From NCBI GenBank assembly GCA_036172245.1, contig JAYWIR010000040.1:496001-560000 (forward strand): a stretch of 64,000 nucleotides of DNA. The letters are read 5' to 3'. The notes beneath the pieces were generated by a model. That model was given only the letters and a program-made list of their open reading frames with translations. It had not been told where the DNA came from and made no database searches. The position numbers and the translations under genes were made by a program. This DNA comes from Raillietiella orientalis (lineage: Eukaryota). Of the stretch, positions 15,564-55,561 are shown piece after piece; within the stretch, counting starts at the first letter, position 1, and each line of letters begins with the position of its first letter.

Positions 15564-15694
15564 GGGTGAGAAAGCTGCTGGGGAGAGTGGACGTGGGTCC
15601 GTCCTCTTACGTGATGGGCTCCGGCCTGGACCACTGGAACGACATGATGAACTCTAGTGGCACGACTGTCGTGAGGTGGCACAAGCTGATGTGA
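15564..15694 (+). CDS. Syt15: Synaptotagmin-like gene, terminal coding exon (GVRKLLGRVDVGPSSYVMGSGLDHWNDMMNSSGTTVVRWHKLM*)
   Basis: Acceptor cttttcttttcag|GG, phase 1, matching the previous donor. Ends in the synaptotagmin HW..M....WHxL signature, with TGA at 15692-15694. Absent from the ORF track because it has no start codon. Confidence 0.9.
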
Positions 15695-30519: not shown

Positions 30520-30976
30520 CAAGATGACGCCGGTTGGCCTCGGTTGGCTTCGGGTTTGGTACTGGTGGAACCGGATGCCCCCGTTGACTGGCCAGGATTG
30601 AAAGTGGATCCTCCGTCTTCTCTCTAGGAATCCAGGAGCACAAGTTCCCTTCGGAGTTCCCCTCCGTTTGTGAAAATGGAGTCATTCCCTTCCTCGAGGA
30701 GGGACCTTCCGTGGCGCACCATCGCATACCATGGAGCTGGTTGATACCCCCCTCTGGGGGTTGTCTCTCCAGAGTGCAAGAAGAGCGCTGCTGCCTTCGG
30801 AAGCATCCCTTCGGGGTTCTCTTCAGAGGAGCACCAACAAAAGCCAGAAAAGCCAACAGAAATTCCAGGAGCGGATACATTTCAAAGTCCTTTTGGAGAA
30901 GAAGTTAAGATCGATCCTCTTTGGAGCATCCCTCCGGAGGGAATCGGGACGAGGTTCCCTTCAGAGGCAACCAGGA
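30520..30976 (+). mobile_element. SINE-like repeat, copy 2 (5' head missing or decayed)
   Basis: About 260 bp (30574-30830) aligns closely with 7313-7580; looser similarity extends on both sides. No intact B-box. Ends approximate. Confidence 0.7.
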
Positions 30977-35036: not shown

Positions 35037-35092
35037 GAGGCGTTTCCAGTGCTGCCCACACAGGAAGGGCAAATTCCAGGAAATCTGCTACC
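35037..35092 (+). CDS. Unknown paralogue 1, candidate short exon (EAFPVLPTQEGQIPGNLLP) just before block A
   Basis: Donor CC|gtaagg (phase 2) fits the next exon; acceptor aattag is weak. Confidence 0.35.
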
Positions 35093-35098
35093 GTAAGG

Positions 35099-35322
35099 TG
35101 CGCGGTAACCGGAAGAGAGAGGAAATGTCCTTACGTCTTGTCTCTCTTGGTGCGGAAGCTTGCTGCTGGATGCTTTATCCCTCGCAGGGCTATGCCTTCC
35201 TGGTGGAAACCTGTTTCTTGGGGACCAAAGAGCGTCGCTTGCTTCGGATGCGGCTGAGGCAATTGAGTTCCTACACGACATGGGCAAAATGTGTTTTCCC
35301 TGATCTCGTCATCCACAAAAGT
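35099..35322 (+). repeat. Block A, copy 1 (224 bp)
   Basis: Ungapped match to 44017-44240; two mismatches seen. Confidence 0.95.
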
Positions 35323-35364
35323 CCAAAACTGATGACTCCTCTTTCTGAGACTAAATTCGATCAG

Positions 35365-35585
35365 AGTTCAAGAAAGCACCTCAACGAAGCCAATCCTTGA
35401 TGGTTCCGTTGAGCTCGGCGAAGTGGAGCTTCCAAGAGACGGGCCGGGAATTCCTGAAGTGTTACCTCCTTCACTTGAAAGAGGAATATATTATGATAGA
35501 ATTCAGCGCCGACACACGGCGATCACACCCAACATTACCATCCATTTAGAGGAGACAAATACGATCGTATCAGTGTCGCAATATG
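35365..35585 (+). CDS. Unknown paralogue 1, candidate exon (VQESTSTKPILDGSVELGEVELPRDGPGIPEVLPPSLERGIYYDRIQRRHTAITPNITIHLEETNTIVSVSQY)
   Basis: Single open frame. RDGPGIPEV and Y...RRHTAIT resemble RDGPPIEV and Y...RRYTGIT of paralogue 2. Acceptor gatcag|A; the donor would be non-canonical G|gcaagt. Confidence 0.5.
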
Positions 35586-35995
35586 GCAAGTGCTCCAGAT
35601 TCGAATTTTGAAATTAATGAGCAAAGAAATAATTTGGTAAGCAGTCCCTTTCTGAATCCTGTGAGAGATTACGCAACACACCCTCCTTTCCGCTGAATTT
35701 TTGCAAATGCTGAAATATTTCGCAAAGACAGAGAAACAAAAATACTATTATAACCCCTAAAGCATTCAAACAAACACGTCATACGTCATACCCTCCTACG
35801 AATGTGACAGTTCACGCTTTTGTGCAACATCATAGTAACAAACTGAGACTACCAGGGAAACAAAACTATATGTGTATAAAGGGGTCAACCACAAACTCCA
35901 TTCAGTTCTGGCAATCCTGGGTCTTCCGAAAGTGAAACCGAAAGCTCACTTACAATGCACGCAGAAAATAATTGTTTTTTTGTTTTCCATCGAAG

Positions 35996-36115
35996 GTTTG
36001 AAGGTGCTGACTTCTTCAATAGTTTTGGAGGACCTACCTATGTAGACCCATGGAGACGAAACACTAGAATAACCTCCAATTCACCCAACCCAGTGTCCAA
36101 TCGCAGACGCATACG
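35996..36115 (+). CDS. Unknown paralogue 1, 'PWRR' exon (FEGADFFNSFGGPTYVDPWRRNTRITSNSPNPVSNRRRIR)
   Basis: T-rich acceptor ttttccatcgaag|G, donor CG|gtaatg. 120 nt, phase 2-2. Homologous to 44388-44516 in the only frame open in both copies, with synonymous changes (TCC/TCA, CGC/CGT). Confidence 0.7.
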
Positions 36116-37507
36116 GTAATGGCCTGCAGCGCCGATCAGAGTTGCAGCTTCCAAGAAGGGAGGGAAGGCCAAATGTTTCCATCAGATGCGCAGTTCTTGG
36201 GTTTCCACAGCTAACATGGGATCCCTGGCGGTGGAAGTCGCCTTCTGCTTACGCTGAGCGACCTTTCCCCCAAACACGCGCGACTTCGACTGCTTTCTGC
36301 TCGGTGCGTGATTCACGCGAGTTTCCCTTCTGGCGGAGGGCACGTTTCCAAGCACACCATTCTTCCTGAAGGATCGCGGGCACAGGCAGTGCGAGTCATG
36401 TTCGAGTGATTTGTCCTCTTTCCTGGTCGAGGTCCCTGAAGAATGGTGATGGCGACTAGGAATGTCACGGAGGCTGCCCCTCCTTGAAGCGATCGGACGG
36501 TCGCAAGCCGTCTTTGAGGCGAGCGCAGAATTGGAAGGTCGGCACGCGTAGGCAGACGGTCTGCTGAAAACACCACGGCCGAGTGGTAGAAAGCGAGCGC
36601 GTTGGTTTTCCGGCAACCGACGAGAAGGACCTCTGTTAAGCCTCGCGATTCGGTGTCCAACTCGTAGAAGTCAGGAAGTGCTGGGAAGGGTCTCCGTGTC
36701 GGATGTCAATGCCTCACTGCCTCCAGGCCAAAGCTGTAGTCTGCCTTTCTCTTGAACGGTTCTTCTTCTTGTGGCAGGCGGCCGATGGGATTCGCGCGAG
36801 GCGAGGAGCACCACCTTGGTGAGGTGCGCACGCGGTTGACGGTGGCACGGGCGGATGAAAGACCGAGGAAGGTGTGGTCACGGTTCGGACTTGTGCGGAG
36901 CGACTTTGATCGTTTTCCCATCTGCCTTTCCCGTTGGGCAGAAGGACTTTGGGAGGGATGCAACGGAGGTAGTCAAGGGCAGCGCCAACGAGTGCAGCAT
37001 CGGGCGCACGCTAGCAAATGCGGCGTATCAAGCGGTGCGCAAGTTTTGGAAGCACGTTCAGAATGTGCAGCCAGGCCTCTAGGATTGCGGCTTCCAGGGA
37101 GTGGCAGGAACAGTATGGCAGTTGCGTAGGTAAGCCAGGCAAGCATCGCCAGCGGCTCTGGCTGGAAATGCGCGTGTCTTTTGGAACGCTTGGATGTGCG
37201 TGGGCGCGTAAGCCAAGCTGCGCATTGTCCTTGGAAGGAAGGCGGCGAGGTTGGGCTTGGCTCGGTTCTTGGAAGTGGTTTTCGGGTTCGGCGGTTGCCT
37301 CTGCAGTCGTCGGTCAGAATCTGTGGATGGAACGTGGGAGTTGACGAGACGCAACTGCGCGTGGTGAATTCTTCGGCGTCCGGGGTCATTCTCAGTGGCG
37401 TCTTGCGGTTCTTTTGTTGCGAAGTTCAGCCGGGACTCCGTGAAGTGGTATTTGAGTGGAGATTTCTAGCTCCGTTGCTAGGAGAAGAGTGCGGTTCGTA
37501 TGAGATA
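36105..37507 (+). repeat. Block B, copy 1 (1403 bp, non-coding, hairpin-rich)
   Basis: Constant offset of 8401 to 44506-45908; only two mismatches seen (37246, 37315). Confidence 0.95.
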
Positions 37508-37741
37508 GCCAAGACGACGTTGAGCGTATTGAAAATGTTGGCGTGATTGCGTCATATCTTCATTTAGTCCTCACTGTTTTCTTGGGCAACCTTGGTAAGC
37601 ATATCGTCGCAGAATTTACGCGTGATAACTTCTACGTCATGATTTTTAATCTCGTTTATGAGTTTCGTGAACTCAGTTGTATGTTGGAGATGCTGTCTGG
37701 GAATCTCCTGCTGTGTTTTACATGTTTCATTCTGATTGCAG

Positions 37742-37853
37742 GCCACCTGTGAGACAGTTCCAAATTCATGAGAACACGAATGACCCCCTGAGCTCAGTTG
37801 ATGGGACTATTGCATCCAATATTGACTATAATCTCTACGCAAATTCCTTTTAA
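37742..37853 (+). CDS. Unknown paralogue 1, terminal exon (PPVRQFQIHENTNDPLSSVDGTIASNIDYNLYANSF*)
   Basis: Acceptor tttcattctgattgcag|G, phase 2. 22 of 36 aa identical to 46123-46237, and 14 of those 22 codons differ synonymously. AT-rich 3' region with ATTAAA (37877) and AATAAA (37970). Confidence 0.8.
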
Positions 37854-38189
37854 TAGATGTGTATGAATTTTTAGCATTAAACTAGTTCTCAAACTGCTGT
37901 CTATTTAATTCTAACGACTACAATTTTATTTGATTTTTCACAGCAAGGCTATTTTTAGCATTGATTTCAAATAAAACGAGTCCTTTTCTTCTTGTAACTA
38001 TGTTTCCACTTGACAACTGTGCTATCTGCTCTACAACTGTTCTAACCATAAAAGCGTTGTCTTCAATGGAATGCCATTTTCTGATGCAGAATGTGGGCTG
38101 CTGTCTCTGTCTTGCTAACCGCCTGCTTTCTCATTGGTTCTGGATCCCGAATAACGACCTTCCACAAGGCAGTGCAGGCTTGTTACTGA

Positions 38190-38910
38190 GCCTTGCACAG
38201 AATTCCTAATGCACCCTGGAATAGATGTGGACACCTACGTTCGGAGGCTGGAATGGTGAAAGTTTGTGAGAGTTCCACCAGCTTTGCGTAACTGCAGCTT
38301 CCAACCGCCCCCACGTGGGGGTGGTGGTCTTGTCTCCAAGCTTCTGCATTGCTGCTTTGCAGCTGATGGCAGAAGCACCTCCACACTCGTGTGGCTGTCT
38401 GGCCCGAAACAGTCCAAGACGGACGTTCACGTCTTGCACTGTTTCGAGATTTCGTGGAGGCGCGCTTTCACGTGCTCCATTCGCGGATGCGGGTTGTAAG
38501 ATGCACGTGTTTGAGTTCGAGGTCGAGGGTTCTTTGGGACGCAATCGGGCACCAGCCGATCACTGCAGGGGAGCACTTTTGTTTTCGAAGAAGATTGGCA
38601 TTCGAGAAGGATGCTGTCGTTCTGTGGACTGTGGTGGAGCCTGCGGGCTGTGTGCCGTTCGTTGCTCGTCTGTTTCCGATGAGCGAAGTTGATGGCGAGC
38701 CGCGCGCCGACGTCGAAGGCTTTCTCAAGCAGGTGGTGCTCGCTGGCTGCCAAGTTTTTCGCAAAACTGCATGTGTTTTTTTGTGAATGTGAGGAAAGGA
38801 TGCGGTAGGGGACAGTTCTTTCTGGGATGGAGTCTTCAGTGAGGATGCATGCAAAGGGGAAGTTTCTGTGGGCGGAAATCATCCGTAAAGAGTAACCATG
38901 GGGATCTTCA
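38190..38910 (+). repeat. Block C, copy 1 (721 bp, hairpin-rich)
   Basis: Constant offset of 8220 to 46410-47130; four mismatches seen. Confidence 0.95.
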
Positions 38911-41900
38911 CGCCAGCTGTATAACAACGGAAGTGGATTATAGCTCAGATCCAGTGTATTTATTACTTTCATTTCTATGAGGAAGCTCGAAGATGCATTA
39001 GCGTTGGCTTCTGGAGAATGCGGTGCCACGAATCTTCGTGTGCCACATCTTCTGTCTTTTGATCAGGCTGGATTTTATTGATTTTGGCAATTCGATTTGA
39101 TCTTCTCAGAGACCGGAATAATTTTGCTGATGGCTAGGGAGCTGTAAAAGAATTAATCAAAAATGGGGAGCAGAGAAAAATGTGTCGAAGAAGAGCTGAG
39201 TTGCTTCAAAAATCGTTGGCTTTCCAGCATTCCTCTTCCTCTGCTTCTTCCATTTTCGCTCTCATTTTCTGCGTGGCATCTTCGTAAAAGAATCCACTCA
39301 GGCCTATCCTGGTATCGTTCTTGCATTCCCTTGGAAGTTCGTTTTCAGGACGTTTGCGATCTCCGACAGTGCCATGGACGAGCAGAAAGGTCTGGACATC
39401 TCCAAGATGAGTGCGTGCAGACTCAGAGCAAAGCACCACGAAGCTGTGAAGCAATGAAAGAGGAGCGAGTCTGACGGAAGACTCTGAAACCCCGCTTTGG
39501 AGCAAGAGGTGGAGCACGCAGCTAGGAAGTTCACCCGAAGAAATCCTCGCACATGGAAACGAGGGAAAGCTTCGTTCTTCCGGTTGCCCTGGTCCGGCGC
39601 ATGGGAGTCCTTTCCTCTGATGATTCCCGGAACAGGATCTTTGGAGATACGCTAAAGGGAGTTCCCCAGAACCTGGTGCTGCAGAGATTCTTCCTCGTGG
39701 CATCTGTGAAGCTTCATTGCCAACTCTTGAATTCAGGAAAGACCCGAGATTCTTGAAATGCCGCCGCTTCATCTGGATATGAAGAAAAATTGCAGAAAGA
39801 GGAACAGAAAAAAAAAAAACTCCAAGGGAAGGAAGTCTCGAAGAGGTGAATTCGAAACTGCTTGGTAGTCAGAAGAGGTAAAAAGATCCACCACATATAC
39901 GCGAAAGCTGACATCGAAGTGGTGGTGCTCTCATGAAATGCGGCTGGAGCGAAATGCTTGATGCACTGGCAACCAGGTGACGGAGCTACCCTAAGTCCTG
40001 AGAAGCTGATGAGAAACATTCACGCTCTGTCATTTGGCCAGATGAACATTCCTGCGGTGGGAAACGCACACGAGAGTGTCCGTGTCATGAACACTGCAGG
40101 TTCACATCACCTCCAGATCAAAAGCTTCGCGTGTTCGGCCACCACGTGGTGTTCAACAGCACCGCTCGCATCCGGACTGGTGATGGATTCCACGGAGCTT
40201 TCAGATGTTTCCCAGAAGCTGATTTGAGAGCTCTTGGGGGAGTCCCACAGAAGACAAGAGCTTCTTCAGAGCCAAGTGTAGCTTGGCATGAATCAGTATG
40301 ACTGATTACTTGACTGATCTGAAAGATTATCATTATTAGATGATATGAATAAGTATGACGGACAGTGAAAAGAATCACACACACACAAAAAAACAAAAAT
40401 CAAGGCATGGAATCCTAATTATAGGGCAATTCTCCGAAGAGCACCAGTAAAAAGGCAAGTTTTCACGGAAGCTCTGGTTGTGAACGAGCACATTCTGGTC
40501 TTTGGAGCACTGACCTGACTGCAAGGGTGTGTGAAGGTCTGGTGACCCAGAGGAATGCTGCTCTGACTACGAGAAGATTCTGTGAAACCTCAGACATCTG
40601 CTTTTCAAAAGATCGGGCTTTGGAACATGATAGTGGGATCCTTTGGAGCAGAACTATCTGGGTCACACGTCTCACCGATCTTACGTGCGCATGACCGTCT
40701 TGGGAAATCCTGAAATTCCAGAGTCTAGAAACTTTAGCACAGAACAAGTCCTTCTGATTTCTCTTTGCCAAGTTCCAGATATTCTTGCAAGACAGCAAAA
40801 AGGGTGAAAACACCGAAGCAAGGGAAGAGAATAAACTTCTTCCTTTAGAAGTCCATGGTCAGGCTGTTGGTCCACTCTCGGCCCTCTTCTCAAGGTGCCT
40901 CCTGTCCACTCCAGGAAGAATGAATGCCTTGGTTGCCCACAAATTCTCAACTGATACGTTAGTCATACCTCGATGATAGTCTCGTAGTCAAGTATTGGAG
41001 GAGGATTAATACCTTTCTTTACTTCAATGTTCCTGAAGTCCCTGGTTCGCGGTTGAAAGGCCTTCCGGTTGCCCTACTTTAGTGACCGAACTTCTGGAGC
41101 GACAATCACCTGAACGGGCTGACTTGTTCATCTTACCTGTTTATAAACGCACATTCAAATCTGCTAAGGAAGAGCGGTTTGAATTCTACGGGAACGCGGC
41201 AAAGAAACTAATGGACGACGTCTCTCTAATGGAAACTTGAAAGTCCTGGCTCCGATTTGAACAAGTCAAAACCAAGAAATCATTGTATCTGGAGTGCTTC
41301 CAGAAAGACTTTTGACAAATCTGAAACTCTGAACTCAAACTTTAGACATCTTCCATCATGAGCAGCAAAGAGTGACTTTTATGTTACAGAATGCTTCATA
41401 GAATGCCCCCTTCCATCGCTTGCCCATAGCCCACATCAGCTGTGAGGTGCTTCTCGCAGGAACCACCATCGCTGTGAATGAAGTTGCCTGCATGGAAACC
41501 CTCTGACAAGCTAGAGGAATCTCTGCAACTTAGCAAGGGTGCCTACAATTCCATGGAAATCAACGAATACATCTCGGCAAGATGAAATGCAGTTTCTTAA
41601 GACTCCGTTTAAGATATCTTCTATCTGGCTCCAAAAGGACCTTAGACCTCTCCCCAAAACATGAATTACCTCTCACTCAGCCAACTCCTTATACTTCCTC
41701 ACGTCTTCCATACGAAAAGGAGCAATCAGCTAAGAAGCAGCTGACAGTCACCGAGAAGACGCTACTACCGAGCGACGCTAAGATGCCGATATGACCATAG
41801 TGGAAGCGTTAAAACCCAAATTTCCAAAAGAAGAAAAAAAGGCTCTCATAGCCACTGGTGAATACGAGGGCATCCAAATATGTGATTCGCACCGGCAAGA

Positions 41901-43960
41901 ATTTTCTGTCTCCAGACAGCATGGAAACAGGCTGCTCCAAGCCGAATCGGCAAGACCACCATTCGTTTCCGAAGATTCGTTTTCAACATCCACCACATCT
42001 CGTCTAAACCAAGCTAGAAGTTGCCGGTCACTCGCAGACATTTCTTGTACACTCAAAGCCTCTATGCGTGCTAGGTGTTTCTCGAAAAGGAAGAAGAATA
42101 CGATTGTCTTCTTCCAAGTACACGGCACAAGGAAGTGCAATGAGGAATCGCAAGCTTCCGCAAAGACGAGAAGCAATTCCAAAGGGAATCTTTGCTGTCC
42201 CACTCTCTTAGTGTTCCCGCAGCTTCCGCTCCCTGTTCTCCCATAGTCCCGGTGAACGCATCGACAATGGGAATAACAGGAGCATTCAGGGAGCCAAGCT
42301 CCGTGGCGTGAAACAGAGATCAGGATTTCTTCTTCTCGCGCACCATGGGAAAAATCTCTTTCCGGGAAACGGAGTCCCATGCGACCTTCAGGAAAGCAAG
42401 GGAGAAAAATTCTGTCTCCGCAACGGAAAGAACATTTCATTACGGACGCTGAGAGAACTTCAGGAAAACCATGACCTTCAAAGTCCGCTCACTTTTTTTG
42501 CGAAGTCCGTCGATGTTCCCTCCGCCCCGTTAATGAATGAAGCGAGAGAGAAGAGCATTTCCCACGACCCAGGGATATAAAGAGTCCTCAGTTCGAAGAT
42601 TTGGGAGCGAAAACATTTGCGTCTCAAGCAGATCCCCCACTCGGACTCTCATGAAGAGGAGAGATGACGCCTTTCCATGTCTTCCGCGAGAAATTGTCTG
42701 GCGCGGTCGCAAGGGCTTTGGCGCGGGCTCGAAAGCAGCTCTCACGTTGACGGCGCTCACCAAACCAAGAGCCCACCAAACAATCACACTCATCTTGGGA
42801 AGGTAAAAGAAGCAAAAATTAAAGAAGCCGCCGACTGCATGGAGGATTAGCTTCGGGATTCTCCAAGAGAAGGAACGGCCAGGCGACCTACTTAAGCACA
42901 GAGGGCAGTTTGCTTCGGCGGCTATCACAAAGAGCATTCCTAAACGAATTGAATCGCTTCCTCCGTCCGCGTCAAAAGAAGAAACGGAAGCATCTCACTA
43001 CCAGCTTGTGGATCGGCGAAGAGGCTTTTGCCAATCGGAATTCGGGAATCTCTTCACTGCATGCGGAACCTTTGGCGCGCTGCTCGGATTGCGACCGTGG
43101 AGCGAAACGGCATTGCATGTTGTTCTGGAATATCTGGAGCATCGTGAGAGTGAAAGGCCACTGCAGTCCAGAATCACAGAAAGGCGAGATTAGCCGGAAG
43201 GTAGTTTTTCGGGTGGATTCGGAACGAATCTGCAGCAAAAGCATCCTGGAGCAACGAAGGTATTCCTTAAGGATAGGCGGGCATTCGCGATAGCTGGGCC
43301 AAAATAAAGAAACTCGCGAATCAAAACAGCATCCAATGTGGTCGGAAGAGATGGACCACATGGTCGCAGAAACAAGGATTAGAATCCGGACAGCGCCGAT
43401 CATTCGCAGCCAGGGAGAGGAAGATCGTTTGGTTGGAGCATCCCGCCCACGCTCGTGTTGTGGAACCTCTGGTTGCAGCTTACTGACTCAATACTCTTGT
43501 TGTTCATTCGATCCGTGGTTCAAGTTTCCCGGGAATTTGGGGCCACAGCAAAAAGTGGATCAGAATGCCGCGCGGACGACACTGAGAGGGGCAAAACGAG
43601 GATGAAAAGTTGCGAGACGACGGACGTTGCCACACACGTGCCTTGGTGGAGAAAGAGTGCTGCTATTTGTGGCTTGAGAGCATAGCTTTCTACTTTCTTT
43701 CCTCCTTCGTATGGAAATTGACAGGGAAGTATGGAAATTCTTAGGACGTTCCGGACCAAAGTAGCGCTGTGACCACAAAAAAAGCGGAAACCGACGAAGA
43801 GAAAAGGAAATTTGATCCAGAACGTCCACAGGTTCTCTGCAGTGCCACAGAGTTTTTTATTTTTTTTAAAAAAAGTAAAGAAAGATTGTGGCCTAAAAGA
43901 TAATCAAATCAGTGAGAAGCTCCTTCACGCTGATTTCAATCGAGTGGACAATTGGATCAG

Positions 43961-44010
43961 AGTTTACGTCCCAACAGCGATCCCGATAGAAATGCTTTAG
44001 AAATTGACAC
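43961..44010 (+). CDS. Unknown paralogue 2, candidate short exon (SLRPNSDPDRNALEIDT) just before block A
   Basis: Donor AC|gtgggt lies at exactly the same distance from block A as the copy-1 donor and is in phase 2, matching the exon at 44388. Acceptor weak. Confidence 0.35.
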
Positions 44011-44016
44011 GTGGGT

Positions 44017-44240
44017 TGCGCGGTAACCGGAAGAGAGAGGAGATGTCCTTACGTCTTGTCTCTCTTGGTGCGGAAGCTTGCTGCTGGATGCTTTATCCCT
44101 CGCAGGGCTATGCCTTCCTGGTGGAAACCTGTTTCTTGGGGACCAAAGAGCGTCGCTTGCTTCGGATGCGGCTGAGGCAATTGAGTTCCTACACGACATG
44201 GGCAAAATGTGCTTTCCCTGATCTCGTCATCCACAAAAGT
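44017..44240 (+). repeat. Block A, copy 2
   Basis: Direct repeat of 35099-35322. Confidence 0.95.
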
Positions 44241-44387
44241 ACAGCACGGATAATGTGTTTCTAGTGAATTAAGGATTCTGCTTTGACTTTTAAGCTATGA
44301 TGCTTTCGCGAAACAGGAACTGCTGTTCCCTAAAACTAACCTTCTGAAATTCTGACACCAAAAAATGATTGTTTTATTTCTTTGCAG

Positions 44388-44516
44388 GAGAGATGGCCCC
44401 CCCATAGAAGTACGAGATAGATTCGAGGCTTACAATACTTATGCTGGACCATGGAGACGTTACACAGGGATTACCCAGACTCCACAGAGACCGCCATCAA
44501 ATCGTAGACGCATACG
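44388..44516 (+). CDS. Unknown paralogue 2, 'PWRR' exon (RDGPPIEVRDRFEAYNTYAGPWRRYTGITQTPQRPPSNRRRIR)
   Basis: Strong acceptor ttttatttctttgcag|G, donor CG|gtaatg. 129 nt, phase 2-2. The other two frames contain TAG. Confidence 0.75.
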
Positions 44517-45908
44517 GTAATGGCCTGCAGCGCCGATCAGAGTTGCAGCTTCCAAGAAGGGAGGGAAGGCCAAATGTTTCCATCAGATGCGCAGTTCTTG
44601 GGTTTCCACAGCTAACATGGGATCCCTGGCGGTGGAAGTCGCCTTCTGCTTACGCTGAGCGACCTTTCCCCCAAACACGCGCGACTTCGACTGCTTTCTG
44701 CTCGGTGCGTGATTCACGCGAGTTTCCCTTCTGGCGGAGGGCACGTTTCCAAGCACACCATTCTTCCTGAAGGATCGCGGGCACAGGCAGTGCGAGTCAT
44801 GTTCGAGTGATTTGTCCTCTTTCCTGGTCGAGGTCCCTGAAGAATGGTGATGGCGACTAGGAATGTCACGGAGGCTGCCCCTCCTTGAAGCGATCGGACG
44901 GTCGCAAGCCGTCTTTGAGGCGAGCGCAGAATTGGAAGGTCGGCACGCGTAGGCAGACGGTCTGCTGAAAACACCACGGCCGAGTGGTAGAAAGCGAGCG
45001 CGTTGGTTTTCCGGCAACCGACGAGAAGGACCTCTGTTAAGCCTCGCGATTCGGTGTCCAACTCGTAGAAGTCAGGAAGTGCTGGGAAGGGTCTCCGTGT
45101 CGGATGTCAATGCCTCACTGCCTCCAGGCCAAAGCTGTAGTCTGCCTTTCTCTTGAACGGTTCTTCTTCTTGTGGCAGGCGGCCGATGGGATTCGCGCGA
45201 GGCGAGGAGCACCACCTTGGTGAGGTGCGCACGCGGTTGACGGTGGCACGGGCGGATGAAAGACCGAGGAAGGTGTGGTCACGGTTCGGACTTGTGCGGA
45301 GCGACTTTGATCGTTTTCCCATCTGCCTTTCCCGTTGGGCAGAAGGACTTTGGGAGGGATGCAACGGAGGTAGTCAAGGGCAGCGCCAACGAGTGCAGCA
45401 TCGGGCGCACGCTAGCAAATGCGGCGTATCAAGCGGTGCGCAAGTTTTGGAAGCACGTTCAGAATGTGCAGCCAGGCCTCTAGGATTGCGGCTTCCAGGG
45501 AGTGGCAGGAACAGTATGGCAGTTGCGTAGGTAAGCCAGGCAAGCATCGCCAGCGGCTCTGGCTGGAAATGCGCGTGTCTTTTGGAACGCTTGGATGTGC
45601 GTGGGCGCGTAAGCCAAGCTGCGCATTGTCCTTGGAAGGAAGGCGGTGAGGTTGGGCTTGGCTCGGTTCTTGGAAGTGGTTTTCGGGTTCGGCGGTTGCC
45701 TCTGCAGTCGTCGGTAAGAATCTGTGGATGGAACGTGGGAGTTGACGAGACGCAACTGCGCGTGGTGAATTCTTCGGCGTCCGGGGTCATTCTCAGTGGC
45801 GTCTTGCGGTTCTTTTGTTGCGAAGTTCAGCCGGGACTCCGTGAAGTGGTATTTGAGTGGAGATTTCTAGCTCCGTTGCTAGGAGAAGAGTGCGGTTCGT
45901 ATGAGATA
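44506..45908 (+). repeat. Block B, copy 2
   Basis: Direct repeat of 36105-37507. Confidence 0.95.
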
Positions 45909-46122
45909 TCCATGAACTGGGGATGAAGTTGATCAAATGCTATTCTTGGTTGGACCACGTGAGGCTCTTCTTCTTTCGTGGTTTTTTTTTTTTTCATTCT
46001 GCGAAGAACTTTTTCTCTTAGGAATGATTCCGGTTTGCCTTTGATTTTGTTCTCCAGTGTAAAATTTATGTTTTCACCTTTGAGACTTTGAAAAGCTGTG
46101 CTCATCTCATGGCATTTTTTAG

Positions 46123-46237
46123 GCCACCAACGAGGCAGTTCAATGTTGGTGAAAATAAAAGAGATCCTCTGGGTAATGTGCAGCAAACGGTAGCTTCCGG
46201 TATTGACTACAACCTTTACGCCGGAAACTTCAAATAA
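46123..46237 (+). CDS. Unknown paralogue 2, terminal exon (PPTRQFNVGENKRDPLGNVQQTVASGIDYNLYAGNFK*)
   Basis: Acceptor cattttttag|G, phase 2. Codon-level conservation with 37742-37853. ATTAAA at 46264. Confidence 0.8.
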
Positions 46238-46409
46238 GAAGACCTCTGAACATGGAGTTTTTGATTAAACTGTTTTTGAATTAATATGTGTTTTGTTTTT
46301 GCACGAAGCACCACTTCCACCGGTTCAGTACCCATTCCTGTTTTTTCTTCTTTTTCTCCTGTAAGAAGTCATTGGATTAAACCTGTATTTTTAGTAAGCT
46401 TGTAACCGT

Positions 46410-47130
46410 GCCTTGCACAGAATTCCCAATGCACCCTGGAATAGATGTGGACACCTACGTTCGGAGGCTGGAATGGTGAAAGTTTGTGAGAGTTCCACCA
46501 GCTTTGCGTAACTGCAGCTTCCAACCGCCCCCACGTGGGGGTGGTGGTCTTGTCTCCAAGCTTCTGCATTGCTGCTTTGCAGCTGATGGCAGAAGCACCT
46601 CCACACTCGTGTGGCTGTCTGGCCCGAAACAGTCCAAGACGGACGTTCACGTCTTGCACTGTTTCGAGATTTCGTGGAGGCGCGCTTTCACGTGCTCCAT
46701 TCGCGGATGCGGGTTGTAAGATGCACGTGTTTGAGTTCGAGGTCGAGGGTTCTTTGGGACGCAATCGGGCACCAGCCGATCACTGCAGGGGAGCACTTTT
46801 GTTTTCGAAGAAGATTGGCATTCGAGAAGGATGCTGTCGTTCTGTGGACTGTGGTGGAGCCTGCGGGCTGTGTGCCGTTCGTTGCTCGTCTGTTTCCGAT
46901 GAGCGAAGTTGATGGCGAGCCGCGCGCCACCGTCGAAGGCTTTCTCAAGCAGGTGGTGCTCGCTGGCTGCCAAGTTTTTCGCAAAACTGCATGTGTTTTT
47001 TTGTGAATGTGAGGAAAGGATGCGGTAGGGGACAGTTCTTTCTGGGATGGAGTCTTCAGTGAGGATGCATGCAAAGGGGAAGTTTCTGTGGGCGGAAATC
47101 ATCCGTAAAGAGTAACCATGGGGACCTTCA
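46410..47130 (+). repeat. Block C, copy 2
   Basis: Direct repeat of 38190-38910. Confidence 0.95.
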
Positions 47131-47485
47131 AGTCATAAGGATTCATGCAGACAGAATTTGATCGTAAATGGTATGTCGTCTCAGCTGCATTTCTTGCTTT
47201 TGAAAAATGGGCGTGTATGCTTTCTTCGGCGGTTCTTACAGTTAGTCGAACTATCTCTTGAATGATTGTGGAGAAGCTGATGCGAACGTTTGTGGGCATC
47301 TTTTTATGCTTTGAAAAATTCCTTTAGTTTGAAGTGCAATGGAGATTTTCTTTTATCCATGAAGTTTGCTGGAAGGTGAACTGATTATTCCACTTGATAT
47401 CGGCTTGTTTGCGCTCTTTCGCCTGATTGAAGAACCTCTAGGGGATGCGGAACTCCAGTCTACTGGAAGGGTGTCTTTATTACAT

Positions 47486-47570
47486 TTCTTTAGATACGGT
47501 TCGATGGACATCCATCAGGGTGCCGAATAAAAAAAAAACAAAGAACGTCTCGCTGGTTAGCAGGTCAGGA
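47486..47570 (+). repeat. Short dispersed repeat (~85 bp), second copy at 50999-51087
   Basis: TTCTTTAGATA.GGTT....GGACAT.CATCAGGGTGCCGAATA(n)CAAAGAACGTCTCGCTGGTT.GCAGGTCAGGAA in both places. Confidence 0.8.
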
Positions 47571-50357
47571 AGTTTGCAGAAGAGGTTGAAGGAAATATCC
47601 TGGATGGAGTTCGTTCTTGAATGCATCTGTGAATACCATTCCCTCTGGGACTACTTGGATTGTAAAGCTAAATCAATGCAGTTTTTCGTTGCTGCGTGCT
47701 ACAGGGATCTGCTTCTGATGCTGGAATTTCGGACGGAGAATCCATTCACATCTTGCTTATCTTGAAAAAGAGGGTTTTGAAATTAAGCGTTCGACAGATT
47801 TGGGTATCCTAAATTATCGAATGACATCCCAGGCAGCTTCCAGCATTAGAACGCGGTTGCAGATTTTTCCCGATAGTCAAGGGAAAATGGAATTCCCGAA
47901 AATCCCTTCCGATTTCCAGAGTGCTTGGCTCGTTTCGTGCCTTTTCGCTGATTTCCTGGAAAAGATCCGTCCTGATTTTAATGGCAAGACCGTGGTCTGC
48001 TTCATCCTTCTTTTGCAGCAGACCACGTCTACACGCATGCAGAGGCATCCAATTAGAACGAAGATAGTGTCAGCAACTTCTCTGGTGGGCTCCGAAGAAA
48101 AGTGCTCACCTCAGACTCCTTCTCTCTAGTCAAGACGCACGTGCATGAGCACGCCAACATCTGAGACAAGCTCGAACTCGTGATCAGAGCGTGTATTCTG
48201 GCTGCCAATCAAAAAAGTGCATCTGTTCTGTACGAGCGAGCCTTTTTTTTTTTGAATTTCCTGTTATTCTTCTAAACCGAATTCCTGTTCTCTCGATCTC
48301 CCAACCTCAGAACTTATTGCAACCCTGGATGCGGTTGCTGCTGTGCCACTGAGTATCCATCCATACAGCCATACTGCATTCATGCTTCAAGTTTTTGTCT
48401 TGGGTATGAAGCGCCCAGTATACAGAGTGGGTCATACATTCCATCAGCTTGTAGGAGAAATATCCCATTTCACCTCTCTCAAGTAATTTTTTCTTTTTTC
48501 TTCTCGTGGGTCCATGATGCACTTTTCTGTTTCGATCCCCATCGTTTTGAATTTCGTTTCGCTTGGTCCTCTTCGGTGTTTTCTGTTACACATCCCTACC
48601 CGCCGCCTTCGATTCAAGTTCTTCCTTTTCCTCGCGGATTCTTCGTCGCATTCGATTCCTGGACCTTGCTTCCGGCTATTCTACATCAATCTGCTCTTTC
48701 CTCTTTAGTTTGCATCACTTGTTAGAATGATTCCTCAGAAGGTGCAAACTGCTCTTGCAGTGGCCTGCTTTTGAGCTGGTGCACTCAACAGTCAGAGAAA
48801 CTTTGTCGGTGACACATCGGGCAAGAGAAAAAAAAAGGAACACCGACATGATTTTGTTTTTTCTTCTTCTCCTCCCTCCAGATGTAGAATTTCGTTAAGA
48901 GGTAACACCTCTTCATGGTTCTGCTCAGTTCTTAGGTGAGGCTAATGAACTTGCCACTAGGATCCCTTTTATTTGAACCACGCCAATATAGGGAATATCG
49001 AGGCGTCAGTCTCCGAGGAATCCCGGGTTGCGTAGGAATAAGACCGCATACAAAAAAAAAAAGAAAGACGACCAATGGGTTGCCATGGTGACGCAAACGG
49101 AACTGAGTGAGATTTTCCGAATCTGTTCCAAAGTGCTCTTCATACGGTGGAGGTCCAAATAAAAGCTGATCTGACAAAAGTAACCATTTCTCCGTGTAGC
49201 CGATGCTATCTTCGCTCCATGAGGCCCACCCACGATACCAGACTAGAAAGAGCGTTTGCAGTCAGTCTCGCGGCGCGTCACATCTCTTCACCTGTTAGAA
49301 GGAGACATTGTCTGTGTGTGGGTTTAAGGGTTCAGAAACATTCTCTACGAATTCTAGTGAACAAAGCAGGAGATCCCAAGAGGTCATTTTCTGTTTACTG
49401 AAACTCAAAAAACTGTAGTTCGTTTTTCCGAGGCCAGAACCTTTCGGGAGTTGATCTTCCGCCTTATAAAGATGATTGTGACGAGGGCCAGTTTAGTTTC
49501 CAGCGAAGGGCTCTGACCTTCTTTGAATGGCTCTCGTATGAATAGACATGGAGAACGGTTCGAAAAACCTCGAACACTGGAGAGCCATCGGCAAAACGAA
49601 GGTCGCGTTCAATTTCTGACAAGGTTCCTGAGAACGTCTATGAACCGTCATGGTGTGAGGGCACTCTCCTAGAAAGATGAGTTGCTGAAGAAACGCTTTG
49701 CTTACCATGAAAATGCTTAGGTTTGATTCTCGCTGAAAGAGCTCCTCGTATGTTTACCGTGACGTCATGCATTTTTTTTTGCGGAGAAGAGGTCTTGCTT
49801 TCGAGAACTGCTCTGGTTTCCACCAAGCTCCATGGCGACCTCACGGTGCGTAGCTCACCATTTTAAGAAGGAAAAAGAACCCTCAATGCGTTAGAAGTGT
49901 AGCAAACTTTAAATAAAGGCGCTTTGTTCCATGGAAACAGCGATTTTTAGGACTGTCAACGACACGAAGAATAAGACCTTGTACGTCAGGCTGCTCCGAG
50001 AATTCTCTTGGCAATGTTTTCATTCGTTTAAAGGAATCCCAGACCCAGTCAGCTTAAGTTTCTGAGTTGAACAGATTCTAGGAAAACGGACATAAGTGCT
50101 CATAATGGATCTGGGTAAGCAGATTGGGAGATTTTGCTGAGCTTGAGAGTCTGGCACGGACGCCCTGTCTGCTTTCATACATTTTTAGACTGAAGAAGAA
50201 GGAAGGAAAAATCGTGCAGGAGTTTCATCTCCATTCCCCCAGGCACCGTCGAATTACCAACTGACTGCAATCGAAATTGCTGTAACGGTTAAACTGTTTC
50301 TCCGTGTCTCTAAAAAGAATGGTATGAAATCAGTTCTTTTTCCTTGATTACTCATGA

Positions 50358-50433: not shown

Positions 50434-50662
50434 CTATGTGTATCCGCTGCCGTATGTGTATCCGTTGTTGTGTGTGTATCCATTGCTGTGTGTGTATCCA
50501 TTGCTGTGTGTGTATCCGTTGTTGTATGGAGCCGACATCCCTGGGTAATAAAACTGCTGATTGGTATGTTCTGGAGGATAATAGGAATTTCGTTGGTAAG
50601 AATAACCAGTTCCAGGATAATAGTAACTTTGAGTATATTGCGTATTCTGGCCAGAGGTCAGC
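50434..50662 (-). CDS. Gly/Tyr/Gln-rich protein, terminal exon (LTSGQNTQYTQSYYYPGTGYSYQRNSYYPPEHTNQQFYYPGMSAPYNNGYTHSNGYTHSNGYTHNNGYTYGSGYT*)
   Basis: Acceptor ttttgttttcttttcag|G CTG in phase 2, matching exon 3. TAG at 50436-50434. Same Tyr-rich YYP composition as exon 3. AATAAA ~70 nt downstream. Confidence 0.85.
50437..50526. repeat. 18-bp tandem repeat x5, coding [SN]NGYT[HY] on the minus strand
   Basis: TGTGTATCC(A/G)TTG(C/T)TGTG-type units directly visible. Confidence 0.9.
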
Positions 50663-52350
50663 CTGAAAAGAAAACAAAATGCAAGAATCAGCCAGCTCTC
50701 GGATTGTCAGCAAAAGAGATCAGTGCCGCAATTTGTCGGAGGTCTTCGCGCATGCGCGACCACACGGTCACTCGCGATCCCATGCCAAAGTCACGCTCGC
50801 TTAGAAGGCGGTCCAGAGCTGACTCTTGAGCGTTGGGCGCTCATCGAGGAACCCGTAACGAACGTGAAACCATTCTCCCATCCGAAAACTACAGGAACAT
50901 CAGGTGTTCTTTAAGCTTACTGAGATGAAGTCAGTCCAGTTTCCAGAGCATTCTTGCCGAGGAGAATCTTGAAAAAATTGCATCTGGATTGGCGCGCTTT
51001 CTTTAGATATGGTTGTAGGGACATTCATCAGGGTGCCGAATAAAAAAAAAAAACCAAAGAACGTCTCGCTGGTTGGCAGGTCAGGAAAAGACACGGAGCA
51101 AATTCTTCTCAGAAGCACTGCTGTAGTACGAAAGCCGACTATCGAGAGAAGGCAGCAACTGCTTTGCGGAAACTTCAAGGGCAGTTATGAGCAGCGTCAC
51201 CATTGCTAATGGAAATCGAAACAAGGAAGCAGTGCTTCTTATTCAGATCTTTGTCTGTGTTTGTTTTCCATCATTTTGATGGATACGAGGAGAAACTCTT
51301 GTGGAAGATTAAAGGTGGTCGCTCGAAACAACTAGCTGTTGGAAGCAATTTTTTTTTGTTCATGAGGAATTGCTGAAGCACTAGAAAGCATTGGAACGAT
51401 AATTTGGAAGGCCAAAGCAGCTGTGGAGCTGCGAGTACAAGTTGTTGCGAGTACAAGCGAGTACAGTTGAAGTCTGGTTGAAGGCTTCTTCTGATAAAAT
51501 CCGTCTTCAGGTTTCAGATGCATTCAGACTTTTGAAACTCAGTTTCTTAAACCCTGAATCGGAATCCGAGTTTGTAACCATGGCAACGCCATGTCTTCAA
51601 CACTCTACCCTATGAACGCCCGTTTTTCCTACACGGATGAAGCGCCAAAGTCTCCCGATAGAACCGGTTAGGATGGTTTTCTTGCTTCAGCTAGTCCACT
51701 TCACTGTCTCAGTTCTGATGCTAGAGCAACTGATTTCCAGTGTGATGGCCAGTTGTCAACCAGATGGCACGGCGGTCATAGTCCTCGGACCTCGGCCACT
51801 CAAAATCCAAAAATTAACGAAGATGCCAGCCTTTAGAGGCGATTTTGTTCTAGTGTTTAAATGGGGACTGGAAATTCCCCAACTTCCTGCTTATTGTCAG
51901 TGCTGCCTCCCTTGAGGAATCAATCAATCATCTTTCTCCCTACTCATATCATGAGCACCTCCATGTCACGTGCTGTTACTTTCCTGGCAATTTCGAATAC
52001 AGTGCATCTTCTACTGACCAAGAACATCCTTTAAAGACGATTCTTTTGATCGAAACGATCGTCACCAGATCGTCACCAGCTGGTGAAGGGGCAGCGCCAA
52101 CAGAAAGGATGGAAATCACAGAATCGAATGCACGTGAGAAGGAACACGAAAGGCGAGCCATGAAAATCGGTGTGCCTCCAAACGCGACAAGAAGGGCAAG
52201 AACCAGAGAAAGATTCGGAGAACCACCTGCTGTTGCCACGCTCGGACACCTGCCGTGTTTTCCTTCATCTGTGTTCGTTGAATCCCCCATGTTTACCTAA
52301 AGGCAAAAAGAAAACGCAACACGGATGCCTCAAGAATTCAAACGGTCCTC

Positions 52351-53065
52351 GTTGGCTACCGCGTGTGGCTGCGGTCTCCGCGTCACGTGATATCGAAGCG
52401 TTGCGAGTTCGATTCCCGCCCGGGGAAGGATCGACACCGAGAAATGAGCGCGTCGTAGGTTTCGAGACCCCCTCAGGATGACGCTGATTGGCCTGTAGAC
52501 TTCGAGGTGTGGCACTGGTGCTAGACGATGCAGTGTCGACTGGCCGGCATTGGAAGTCGACCCCCTGGGGTCTTCCAATGCCGGCCAGTCGGTAGGTTAG
52601 GTCCAGTTGGTAGTTTGGTCAATAGGTCTATGGTTGGGTTCCCTTCGGGGTCCCCCTCAGGAAGAGGCCCTCCATCGCGCACCGTGGAGCTGGTTGATAC
52701 CCCCCTTTGGGGGATTGCATATTCAGGGTGTTGCAGAAGCTCTCTGCTTACTTCGGAAGCGCCCTTCAGAGAAATTGGGAAACGCCCCTTCGGGACTCTT
52801 CTCAGAGGAGGAAACAAGGAAGCTCGTTGGTTCCCTCCGAAGAGGAAATTCCAGGAGCGGGTTTCCTTCGTGGTTCCCTACCGAGCGTAAGAGGCACGGA
52901 CTTTCCCTCGGAACCTTCCTGGATTCATAGGAAGGTCCCTTCGGAGTCATCCCCTAACTTGAAGAGTGACACGTACCCTCTGATGACATGGATAGAGCTT
53001 TGTGAGTTCCACCCCGAGGGAGACGAGAGGTTCTTCAGTACTTTGCGAACCAAAAAAAAAAAAAA
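52351..53065 (+). mobile_element. tRNA-headed SINE-like repeat, copy 3
   Basis: B-box GAGTTCGATTCCC at 52405-52417. Near-identical reverse complement at 55.6-56.3 kb. Ends in an A-run at 53053-53065. Confidence 0.75.
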
Positions 53066-53634
53066 CCCAAGAGATTCGAACTCGAAAACGAAGGAGAACA
53101 AGAAGAAACGAACAACCGTAGATCCCTTCTTCGGTTGTTCTCCTGGCTGGAATTTCTTGGATGTCTTTTGACTTTCGTAACATGGAGATAGGCGCGCTCC
53201 TGTCAGCGGTTCCATGCATAGTTCCGAAGACCAAACTTCGATTACAGAGGTCTCTGACCGGATGTCGAATATTCGATTCCCTGAAGGCTACCGGCTGAAG
53301 GCGGCATTTCTGAAGCCAGATGCCGTTCAAGCACCAGTCGAGAGTTCTTCTAGGTGGTTCTTGCCACATCGTGAAACGCGCGTTCCTCCAAATGTGTTGC
53401 TGCACTCTCGAGCGCTGGAGCACCGCGCTTGCAGTGAGGCCTGCATTCCAACACATGAACTCTTGCTTGAGCGACAGACCTCCTTCTGTAACAGGAAAAC
53501 CACTCCAGACGTGAGACAGGCTGAGACCTCAAGAAATTCGAGACCAATCTTTTTCCCGATTCCATCTTCCGAGCTTTCCCCTCAAATCCCTCGCCATTTT
53601 TCCCCTGTAGCTCTTCATTGAAAACGGAGCTTAC

Positions 53635-53874
53635 CCGTCGTACGTGTAGTCTAGCTGGTACTGCTGCCCTCCTCCTGAGGAGTATGGGGAACTCTGGTAG
53701 CCACTCTGGTAGCCACCTTGGTAGCCACCCTGGTAACCACCCTGGTAGCCACCCTGGTAGCCACCCTGGTAGCCACCCTGGTAGCCATGGTAGGAGGGGG
53801 GATTCCGGTATCCAGTGACACTATATGCTTGCGTGGGATAATAGTACCCTCCGCCGGTCCTGGATCCGCTCTTG
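53635..53874 (-). CDS. Gly/Tyr/Gln-rich protein, exon 3 (KSGSRTGGGYYYPTQAY...(GYQG)n...QLDYTYDG)
   Basis: Acceptor ctttttcag|C AAG, donor GAC GG|gtaagc. 240 nt, phase 2-2. Eight GYQ[G/S] units. Confidence 0.85.
53694..53787. repeat. 12-bp tandem repeat (CTGGTAGCCACC)x~8, coding GYQG on the minus strand
   Basis: Directly visible; no spacers. Confidence 0.9.
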
Positions 53875-53926
53875 CTGAAAAAGCTGAGCCAACGCAGATC
53901 GCAAGTAACCCATAGGGCCTTCTTAC

Positions 53927-53970
53927 CATCGCGCTTTCTGCACATCGTGGAAGAGTAGGAGGACAGCACA
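53927..53970 (-). CDS. Gly/Tyr/Gln-rich protein, exon 2 (CAVLLLFHDVQKARC)
   Basis: Strong polypyrimidine acceptor ttttttttctccccag|TGT, donor GATG|gtaaga. Phase 0 to 2, followed by a 52-nt intron. Confidence 0.7.
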
Positions 53971-55561
53971 CTGGGGAGAAAAAAAAGCACAAAAGAACAA
54001 GTGAAAACAGTGATGAATTGCAGGATCCGGACCGGGAAGTGCTCCAGAGCCCCCAGCGTAGGATGAGAACAAAATTGCAATGAGCATCCCGAGTCACTCA
54101 TTAGAGTCTTTGGGGTTGCTATAGAAAAGAAATTTCGGTCACAGCCTCGAGGATCAAACGAAGCATTCATCATCATCCACTAAGTTTCGCATGCACTGGT
54201 TATGACCAAGACATCTGGCGCTCCTAGTGTCGGTTGCCGAAGCAGCACATTATGTTACCACGCGAGTCACATTACATGGCATTAAGAAGGCACTCATCTC
54301 CACGTGGATTGGTGTCTTCTCAACGAAACTGCTTCACACAGCCAGCTTGGGGCCCCGAAGTGTTGTGCCACGTGAGCTCAGATTTCGAAGTGGCCGTCGC
54401 CCACCCTCCAGGATTGCGCAGGCGAGTGGCGCGCCGGGAGGGCCGCTTCCCAGTTTTCCGACGCGGGACCGGAGCGGCGAAAGAGCGCCCGCGGTCGCCG
54501 CGCCGACCCGGCTGCGAAGACCACACGCGTTTGCGCGCGGACACGCCAGAACGCAGCGCGGGGAAGCTCCGTTATTCCTGGAAGGACCCTGCAAGCGCTA
54601 CTCCCAGTTCCGGCTGCTCCAACGCGCCCAAGAGCCGCGCAAGTGCCGAAAAATGGTTGCCGTCAGCCAACCAGCCCTTCCTTTCCTTTTTCTTCTTCAC
54701 TTTTCCTAAAAGCGAAGGCGGTTATCCATCCATTTGAAAGGAAATTCTTGCAGCTTCATTTTCTACTAGACATCTATAGAATGCTCTCGGTGGTGAGCGC
54801 AGCGTTGTGCTTGCGCGACTGCGTTATCCGGCCTTCTGCGCTTTCCGCTCGCATCATTTACGGCTCGGATCACCCTTCAGAGATCCTCGCTGTCCACTCA
54901 GCAGTTTCGGGCTCTCGTGGAGCCCAGGGCAGCCAAGAAACCAGACTGGTTTTGAGCGGAACGTGCGCATCGCCTCCCGAGGCAGGACACCAGCCAGAAC
55001 CGACTGCCCGATTTTCCCGACAGGAAGTTCTTCGGCCTACGTTCCTATGCGATTCGCGGTGGATGAATCGAACCAAATTCCTCCGCCCTGTTCCCGGATG
55101 CCAAAGAACCCCTGCTCTCGCGTTCTAGCGGGTTCCGAACGTGAATTCCATACTCATCTCAGGAAGTCTCCACGGCAGCTCCATCACTGATTTCCACTAC
55201 GCTCTTCTGTTTCCACTTTTCCCTAATATTTTCATTTCTTTCTTTTTTTTTTTTTAAAAAAGGACAGAAGGTGGTCACTGTCTGAGCGAGGTGAGGTCGC
55301 GAATGCTTTTGCGACTGCTTTTGCGCCTTCCAAGACGCCGTTCTTGGACGGTCATCTTAGCAGCCGAGGCAGGTGAGTCGCCGTCTGCACCTCTCGGCCG
55401 GTGATTGGAGCGACAGAAGGGAACGGCTTGGGTGGTGGTGCGCCTGACGGCGCCGTTCGCGAATTTGCTCGTGGCTTCCGAGATGCCAGTGGACGAATGC
55501 ACCTGCGTCAGGACTCCGAAGGTGTAGATCTCACGCGACTCTTCCTCGTATTCCTGCTCGT

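Follow-up and report, generated by a model that had tools for sequence, protein, structure and literature searches.

Near-identical non-coding blocks around anciently diverged exons in a duplicated two-exon module of Raillietiella orientalis

We asked how two neighbouring copies of a short gene module can carry anciently diverged coding exons inside non-coding DNA that is almost identical between them. The module lies in a stretch of 64,000 nucleotides of Raillietiella orientalis DNA (assembly GCA_036172245.1, contig JAYWIR010000040.1, positions 496,001 to 560,000 of the forward strand), which we call the window and whose own numbering is used throughout. Each copy (unit 1 and unit 2) contains three constant blocks, A, B and C, with an exon that we call exon 2 between A and B and the terminal exon 3 between B and C. 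An initial annotation of the locus had described tandem paralogues with near-identical introns and had proposed two causes, gene conversion confined to introns or intron-sized elements copied between homologous splice sites. A blastn self-comparison of the window gave three direct ungapped matches, in the same order and orientation and 8.2-8.9 kb apart, which define the blocks as follows:

35099..35322, no strand assigned: constant block A of unit 1 (GC 0.52, no 3-base periodicity)
36096..37511, no strand assigned: constant block B of unit 1 (GC 0.58, GC skew +0.17; 1396 of the 1626 nt of an intron)
38178..38910, no strand assigned: constant block C of unit 1 (733 bp, core 38190-38910)
44017..44240, no strand assigned: constant block A of unit 2 (blastn self-match)
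44497..45912, no strand assigned: constant block B of unit 2 (blastn self-match)
46398..47130, no strand assigned: constant block C of unit 2 (blastn self-match)

The copies of block A differ at 2 of 224 bp (99.1% identity), those of block B at 5 of 1416 bp (99.65%) and those of block C at 7 of 733 bp (99.0%), three of these seven mismatches lying within the first 12 nt of C. The offset between the copies is 8918 for A, 8401 for B and 8220 for C; because the offsets are unequal, the DNA between the blocks has a different length in unit 1 and unit 2. When the ragged edges were removed, cores of 224 bp with 2 differences (A), 1403 bp with 2 differences (B; 36105-37507 in unit 1) and 721 bp with 4 differences (C) remained. 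These are exactly the figures given in the initial annotation, which had also placed the two units correctly, ~8.3 kb apart and in the same order. The divergence of the cores ranges from 0.14 to 0.89% and is ~0.3% overall across 2.4 kb of non-coding backbone. The six block edges are abrupt, identity dropping from ~100% to the background level over a handful of bases; the exception is the edge at which B enters the conserved end of exon 2. Just outside some of the edges (right of A, right of B and left of C) a few bases match. No additional copies or diverged relatives of A, B or C were found elsewhere in the 64 kb (word-7 blastn), and no further collinear similarity was found around the units by 11-mer dot analysis.

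We then considered whether the DNA between the blocks is coding. The exons are:

35996..36115, plus strand: exon 2 of unit 1 (120 nt; acceptor inferred, donor CG/GTAATG; last 11-20 nt inside B)
44388..44516, plus strand: exon 2 of unit 2 (129 nt; 9 nt, i.e. three codons, longer than in unit 1)
37742..37853, plus strand: terminal exon 3 of unit 1 (stop TAA; proportion of synonymous differences (pS) between the copies 0.79, nonsynonymous divergence (dN) 0.38)
46123..46237, plus strand: terminal exon 3 of unit 2 (stop TAA)

By tblastn the two copies of exon 2 are 51% identical over 39 residues (E 5e-8; a first tblastn based on open reading frames (ORFs) gave 41% over 56 residues, with intron translation included), and those of exon 3 share 23 of 37 residues (62%, E 1.5e-13). 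The global alignment of exon 3 scores far above alignments of shuffled sequences (z = 14.7). Fourteen of the 22 conserved codons of exon 3 differ synonymously when the junction-spanning codon is left out, which reproduces the earlier count. On 53 codons, comprising exon 3 and the ungapped part of exon 2 outside block B, the Nei-Gojobori method gave a pS of 0.72, which is saturated (synonymous divergence (dS) at least 2.4), and a dN of 0.41, with identities of 68, 72 and 38% at codon positions 1, 2 and 3. The ratio dN/dS is ~0.17 or less in the exons and there was no sign of diversifying selection. Both copies also have in common the donor CG/GTAATG, good acceptors, the intron phase and a TAA at the same place to within one codon. 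These values mean that exons 2 and 3 are real coding sequence which diverged long ago and is under purifying selection. The self-comparison of exon dS with intron divergence, suggested in the initial annotation as a check, sets saturated exons against cores that differ by less than 1%, and the age contrast between backbone and exons exceeds two orders of magnitude.

The two exons encode a tail of ~77 residues that is rich in Arg, Pro and Asn, with the conserved motifs PWRR, SNRRRIRPP and IDYNLYA. The exon 2 peptide has no in-frame ATG in either unit, and therefore upstream exons must exist. A translated comparison of the DNA before unit 1 with the 5.1 kb spacer between the units revealed no convincing homologous upstream exons. 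A match between 25762-25815 and 43964-44014 (E 0.026) was considered as a shared upstream exon and rejected, because there is no donor at the matching place. The initial annotation had placed an exon immediately before A, ending at 35092 in unit 1 and 44010 in unit 2; the GT 6 nt upstream of A is indeed present in both copies (35093 and 44011), but the exons proposed for the two copies are not similar as protein and nothing else supports them.

Relatives of the gene were sought on a larger scale. A profile of exon 3 gave three hits among 1.84 billion representatives, all judged false, as they are repeat proteins that match via short repeated motifs. The same profile gave 292 pattern-matching stretches in metagenome scans, none of which encodes a relative, and a 28-mer from B had no match in metagenome scans. 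The exon peptides appear, from these searches, to have no detectable family and to form the tail of an orphan gene.

What surrounds the exons within each unit? Apart from the blocks, the units consist of the following variable segments, and they are separated by a spacer:

35323..35995, plus strand: variable segment before exon 2, unit 1 (673 nt, GC 0.42)
44241..44387, plus strand: variable segment before exon 2, unit 2 (147 nt, GC 0.36)
37512..37741, plus strand: variable 3' end of the intron, unit 1 (230 nt, GC 0.41)
45913..46122, plus strand: variable 3' end of the intron, unit 2 (210 nt, GC 0.37)
37854..38177, plus strand: variable 3' untranslated region (UTR)/flank, unit 1 (ATTAAA at 37876, AATAAA at 37970)
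46238..46397, plus strand: variable 3' UTR/flank, unit 2 (ATTAAA at 46264 and 46376)
38911..44016, no strand assigned: spacer between the units (5.1 kb, unique)

The variable segments outside the exons are unalignable between the units, as had been stated from inspection by eye: compared with shuffled sequences, the global alignment reaches z = 2.2 in the part preceding exon 2, z = -0.4 at the intron's 3' end and z = 0.7 in the 3' flank. Likewise, the spacer has neither DNA nor translated similarity to the DNA upstream of unit 1. Block B starts 11-20 nt inside exon 2, its perfect part beginning 11 nt before the CG/GTAATG donor, and covers 1396 nt of an intron of 1626 nt in unit 1 and 1606 nt in unit 2 (86-87%), in agreement with the earlier description of a block that fills most of its intron. 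The final 208-230 nt of this intron before the acceptor are unrelated between the units. Block C begins 208 nt (unit 1) or 22 nt (unit 2) past the last poly(A) signal, and because it lies downstream of these signals it is probably 3' flank and not intron. The term 'near-identical introns' is therefore too narrow, and A may or may not lie within an intron. The duplicated part amounts to a module that extends from A to C and includes the two terminal exons, 3.8 kb in unit 1 and 3.1 kb in unit 2. With only this two-exon module of 3.1-3.8 kb shared, and two units in the window, 'tandem paralogues' and a 'gene-array system' went beyond the evidence; the units may be separate genes, or a single gene may use them as alternative 3' ends.

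Next, we asked whether the blocks themselves have coding or other functional character. Their composition sets them apart: GC is 0.52-0.58 in A, B and C versus 0.34-0.42 in the variable non-coding segments (a difference of 10-24 points) and 0.44-0.49 in neighbouring DNA. B and C have a common GC skew of ~+0.17, G exceeds C and T exceeds A on the plus strand of the blocks, and the observed/expected ratio of CpG is 1.03 in B versus ~0.8 in the surrounding DNA. The ratio of 3-base periodicity is 1.1-1.7 in the blocks (1.1 in B) compared with 25.9 in an exon of the synaptotagmin-like gene of the same window, whose GC at third codon positions (GC3) is 0.81, and by the standard of this genome A, B and C are not coding. 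The Pfam scan comprised 235 ORFs of at least 105 aa; of the short ORFs (45-104 aa) that lie outside the units, it took in 150 of 286 on the plus strand (those at 9-35 kb, with 136 remaining) and none of 266 on the minus strand. Among the 235 longer ORFs, those in the blocks had no match. A 162-aa ORF in B and a 211-aa ORF on the minus strand of C had no homologue at E <= 0.01 within the 'near' length range of a collection of 5.8 billion proteins. The whole 64-kb window contains no Rfam match and no tRNA, and the folding energy along A and B is the same as that of dinucleotide shuffles (mean z near 0). At the blocks we found no inverted repeats of at least 60 nt, no terminal inverted repeats (TIRs), and no target-site duplications (TSDs) or flanking duplication. 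A search for a recombination signal common to the six edges yielded only chance 7-mers.

Some further observations on the blocks can be added here. At all five differences in B (36098-37508) unit 1 has the strong base (G or C) and unit 2 the weak one (A or T), and six of the seven weak/strong differences in A and C carry G or C in unit 2; the sites are too few to interpret. Between 38340 and 38480 of block C (46560-46700 in unit 2) three short hairpins are clustered, two of them with stems of ~16 bp. The cluster has z of -4.2 for 171 nt and of -6.0 and -5.5 for a 160-nt window on the two strands, and has no Rfam match. A gene on the minus strand with C, B and A as its exons was considered and rejected on inspection by eye, as the splice signals at the edges do not fit (for example, there is no CT after B) and periodicity is missing. 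Extreme purifying selection on A, B and C of the ultraconserved type is not credible either, with 1.4 kb at 99.65% identity set against saturated silent sites; we know of no constraint strong enough to maintain this between such copies.

How, then, could the two copies be so alike outside their exons? The explanation that we prefer, and to which we would give about half of our belief, is that interlocus (non-allelic) gene conversion homogenises a non-coding backbone, from which the exon segments escape as islands of divergence. The initial annotation had conversion confined to introns, with conversion of exons selected against, as one of its two proposals; it is the better of the two, although 'introns' is too narrow and should give way to a non-coding backbone. 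The data directly show the mosaic, the age contrast, the coding signature of the exons and the non-coding character and higher GC of the blocks, whereas the process itself, its long duration and the selection on the exons are what we infer. In outline, the module with the final two coding exons exists as two direct copies from an old duplication, and both copies have kept their open frames, splice phases and stop position under purifying selection. The backbone, made up of upstream DNA in A, of 86-87% of the intron in B and of 3' flank in C, would have been kept near-identical, or very recently made so, by non-allelic gene conversion between the copies. Because the exon-bearing segments are only ~59% identical as DNA, they would be too dissimilar to join in heteroduplex formation, and conversion across the exons is probably selected against. 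The islands of divergence would have spread from the exons into the adjoining intron and UTR, and each homogenised tract would stop at the limit of homology; this would account for the abruptness of the block edges. The density of mismatches shows no significant heterogeneity among the three cores (exact multinomial p = 0.073), so both a single recent round of exchange and a steady state are possible.

The presence of two nearby direct copies, with three collinear ungapped tracts flanking saturated exons, argues for conversion of the backbone, as does the lack of mobile-element or gene features in A, B and C. About 224 bp is roughly the minimal length for efficient homologous recombination, and all three tracts are at least that long. 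The raised GC of the blocks and the CpG content of B fit what is expected from long-acting GC-biased conversion. Several points weigh against this explanation. The GC enrichment is not specific, as sequence of foreign origin would look alike. The contrast between saturated exons and a backbone differing by ~0.3% is far beyond the documented cases, and continuous conversion over a long time in three separate tracts bounded by non-homology, one of them of 224 bp, is demanding. In addition, the blocks begin at, or within 6-20 nt of, donors yet stop 147-673 nt before the next acceptor, and this asymmetry between donor and acceptor is not predicted by a simple island model.

We compared the locus with known systems in which introns or flanks are more alike than exons. 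The exons of opsin genes are only a few percent apart, and conversion still affects them occasionally. In the part of the review PMC3924837 that deals with the primate red and green opsin genes, their introns are described as homogenised by frequent conversion, with a peak of divergence that persists at exon 5. Our units resemble these red/green (L/M) opsins, as far as that account goes, in being nearby tandem direct paralogues with introns more alike than exons and an island of divergence at selected coding sequence (PMC3924837). Unlike in the opsins, the exons here are saturated at silent sites (pS 0.72), the flanks are unalignable and only a two-exon 3' module is duplicated. Snake-venom phospholipase A2 (PLA2) and conotoxin genes have conserved introns and accelerated exons, with dN at or above dS in young duplicates. 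They are similar to our units in that introns are far more alike than the exons of the paralogues, but in our units the silent sites are saturated, dN/dS lies clearly below 1 and the parts of the intron that adjoin the exons are unrelated. Similar islands are cited for RHD/RHCE, protocadherins and duplicates of Drosophila and yeast (in the corresponding section of PMC3924837), and the name 'islands of divergence' under conversion is used for Tigriopus GOT1 (in the relevant part of PMC3728101). In the portions of these two papers that concern them, all of these present, like our units, a mosaic of homogenised and divergent parts which is read as selection against conversion. Their mosaic is, in the same portions, mostly coding and of moderate divergence, in contrast to the present locus, in which the homogenised part is non-coding except for 11-20 nt of exon 2. 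This type of pattern is therefore already known, and it is the degree that is extreme here, with saturated exons and three separate tracts, one of which is only 224 bp long.

If the assembly is right, the locus ranks among the most extreme known cases of 'inverted' conservation: its exons are saturated, yet the 2.4 kb of non-coding backbone around them differs by only ~0.3%. Such a locus would reveal for how much time concerted evolution can go on in short tracts that end at non-homology, and how tightly exons can be fenced off by selection or by lost homology. Block B, a direct repeat of 1.4 kb within the intron, is a ready substrate for unequal crossing-over; the product of a crossover there would carry exon 2 from one unit and exon 3 from the other, i.e. 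natural exon shuffling through an intron. The locus is also a warning for annotation: dating the duplicates by their introns or flanks would here be wrong by orders of magnitude.

Could the backbone instead be young and the exons secondarily replaced? According to this alternative, which we consider unlikely though worth serious attention, the units belong to a young multi-copy family (a repeat or mobile backbone, or dispersed genes) and were duplicated recently, after which their exon cassettes were replaced by recombination with a third donor, more distant members of the family elsewhere in the genome. One recent origin would be compatible with the equal and very low divergence of the three blocks. 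The blocks also share a composition unlike that of their surroundings (GC 0.52-0.58, with G over C and T over A on the plus strand), and their edges are sharp, homology between the units ending exactly at A and at C. Against it, none of the three blocks has a third copy or a diverged relative in the 64 kb. The hallmarks of a transposable element are lacking in the blocks too: they contain no Pfam domain (transposon proteins included) in ORFs of at least 105 aa, no periodicity, no terminal repeats and no target-site duplications. Other repeat families in the window are 75-95% identical and not 99%; with the dispersed family of 75-87% identity as a yardstick, ordinary repeats of this window are far more diverged than A, B and C. 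Moreover, replacement of both cassettes with frame, phase and splice sites kept needs donors with the same backbone, which means that conversion would still be required.

We think it distinctly improbable that the units are two ancient balanced haplotypes of one locus, put on one contig by a recent small duplication or by false haplotype duplication. Ordinary allelic recombination would then have kept the backbone uniform, with the exon variants held apart by selection. Such recombination readily produces narrow old peaks at selected sites in a young background, and the duplication is limited to a short module. A backbone divergence of 0.14-0.89% is within the range expected for diversity within a species. 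The unique 5.1 kb spacer and the unrelated flanks outside A-C are nevertheless unlike a tandem-collapsed haplotig, saturation of synonymous sites between alleles would be exceptional, and the dN/dS of ~0.17 or less gives no sign of diversifying selection. In genes of the major histocompatibility complex (MHC), old lineages are preserved at the peptide-binding exons and neighbouring introns or exons are homogenised, according to the passages of PMC3434948 on this subject. As in these passages of PMC3434948, segments of one gene are of very different age at our locus, with recombination homogenising some and selection preserving others. The likeness has its limits, as there is no MHC or other known domain here and dN/dS is low.

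Returning to conversion of the backbone, the blocks might even be maintained as recombination substrates of a module with a constant backbone and variable cassettes, in which crossovers or conversions in A, B and C would re-assort old exon 2/exon 3 cassettes between the units, possibly including units outside the window. We regard this extension as very unlikely. If it were true, combinatorial C-terminal tails would arise in the germline or even somatically, and the block edges at donors would be functional, each cassette carrying its own upstream intron end and acceptor.

An artefact of assembly or polishing, in which moderately similar repeats were made identical by a consensus from multi-mapped reads, is highly improbable. 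The blocks are ungapped over up to 1416 bp and still retain 14 scattered differences. They also adjoin wholly unalignable DNA, with edges tied to splice sites, and polishing does not create homology out of unrelated sequence.

The second proposal of the initial annotation, to which we give hardly any credence, derives the three blocks from intron-generating or homing elements (Introners or reverse-spliced introns) that spread as copies from one splice site to its homologue. In its favour, a GT stands 6 nt ahead of A in each unit, and B contains a donor site. In the sections of PMC9860276 and PMC3609843 on Introners, near-identical intronic sequence likewise occurs in different gene copies. Introners are characterised, in that section of PMC9860276, by 5 to more than 2000 copies in unrelated genes, with the element constituting the intron. 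Here there are two copies in 64 kb, without a third, and they stand at homologous positions. B is not a whole intron (1396 of 1626 or 1606 nt), the 3' part of its intron is unrelated between the units and the block extends into the exon; C lies beyond the poly(A) signals; and neither a shared edge motif nor TIRs or TSDs, which some of the Introner families carry, were found at the blocks. The anciently diverged paralogues share the position and phase of the intron, so the intron predates the identity of the blocks. With 1.4 kb, B is also longer than the median of 30-654 nt given for families of Introners (in the same section of PMC9860276). The proposal thus fails on structural grounds.

Equally hard to credit is a single template-switching event (of the type of microhomology-mediated break-induced replication or fork stalling and template switching, MMBIR/FoSTeS) that copied three non-coding pieces between old diverged paralogues: block divergence equal within error, sharp edges and the few matching bases outside some of them would suit it, but six switches would be needed at equivalent positions with both exons, the phases and the splice sites left intact, and as the replaced sequence is lost no junction signature is verifiable.

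Finally, we describe the remainder of the window. The sole recognisable gene is synaptotagmin-like. It has a 351-codon open frame at 1589-2641 on the plus strand with a C2 domain (Pfam E 1.3e-25; GC3 0.81), and a second C2 piece is found 7 kb downstream at 9245-9730 on the same strand; among the ORFs scanned, only these C2 domains passed the curated cut-off of Pfam. The closest relatives are animal synaptotagmins 7/9/10, with only 39-41% identity. In the region 14000-20000 (6 kb, GC 0.61) each of the six phases holds open frames, but Pfam gives no match and coding periodicity is not obvious; an unrecognised gene may have its CpG-rich 5' part here. Inverted repeats of ~636 bp that are 95.4% identical lie at 52362-52995 and 55629-56263 with ~2.6 kb between them and may represent a mobile element; the ORFs inside this pair (52362-56263) had no Pfam match. 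The dispersed repeat family mentioned above, whose members are alike in translation as well, occupies 7312-7624, 30574-30812, 52672-52848 and 55777-55953. A short repeat pair of 90 bp (47485-47571 and 50998-51087) is 90% identical, an 18-bp tandem array of 4.9 copies is present at 50437-50525, and a 36/48-bp tandem duplication is located at 53691-53787.

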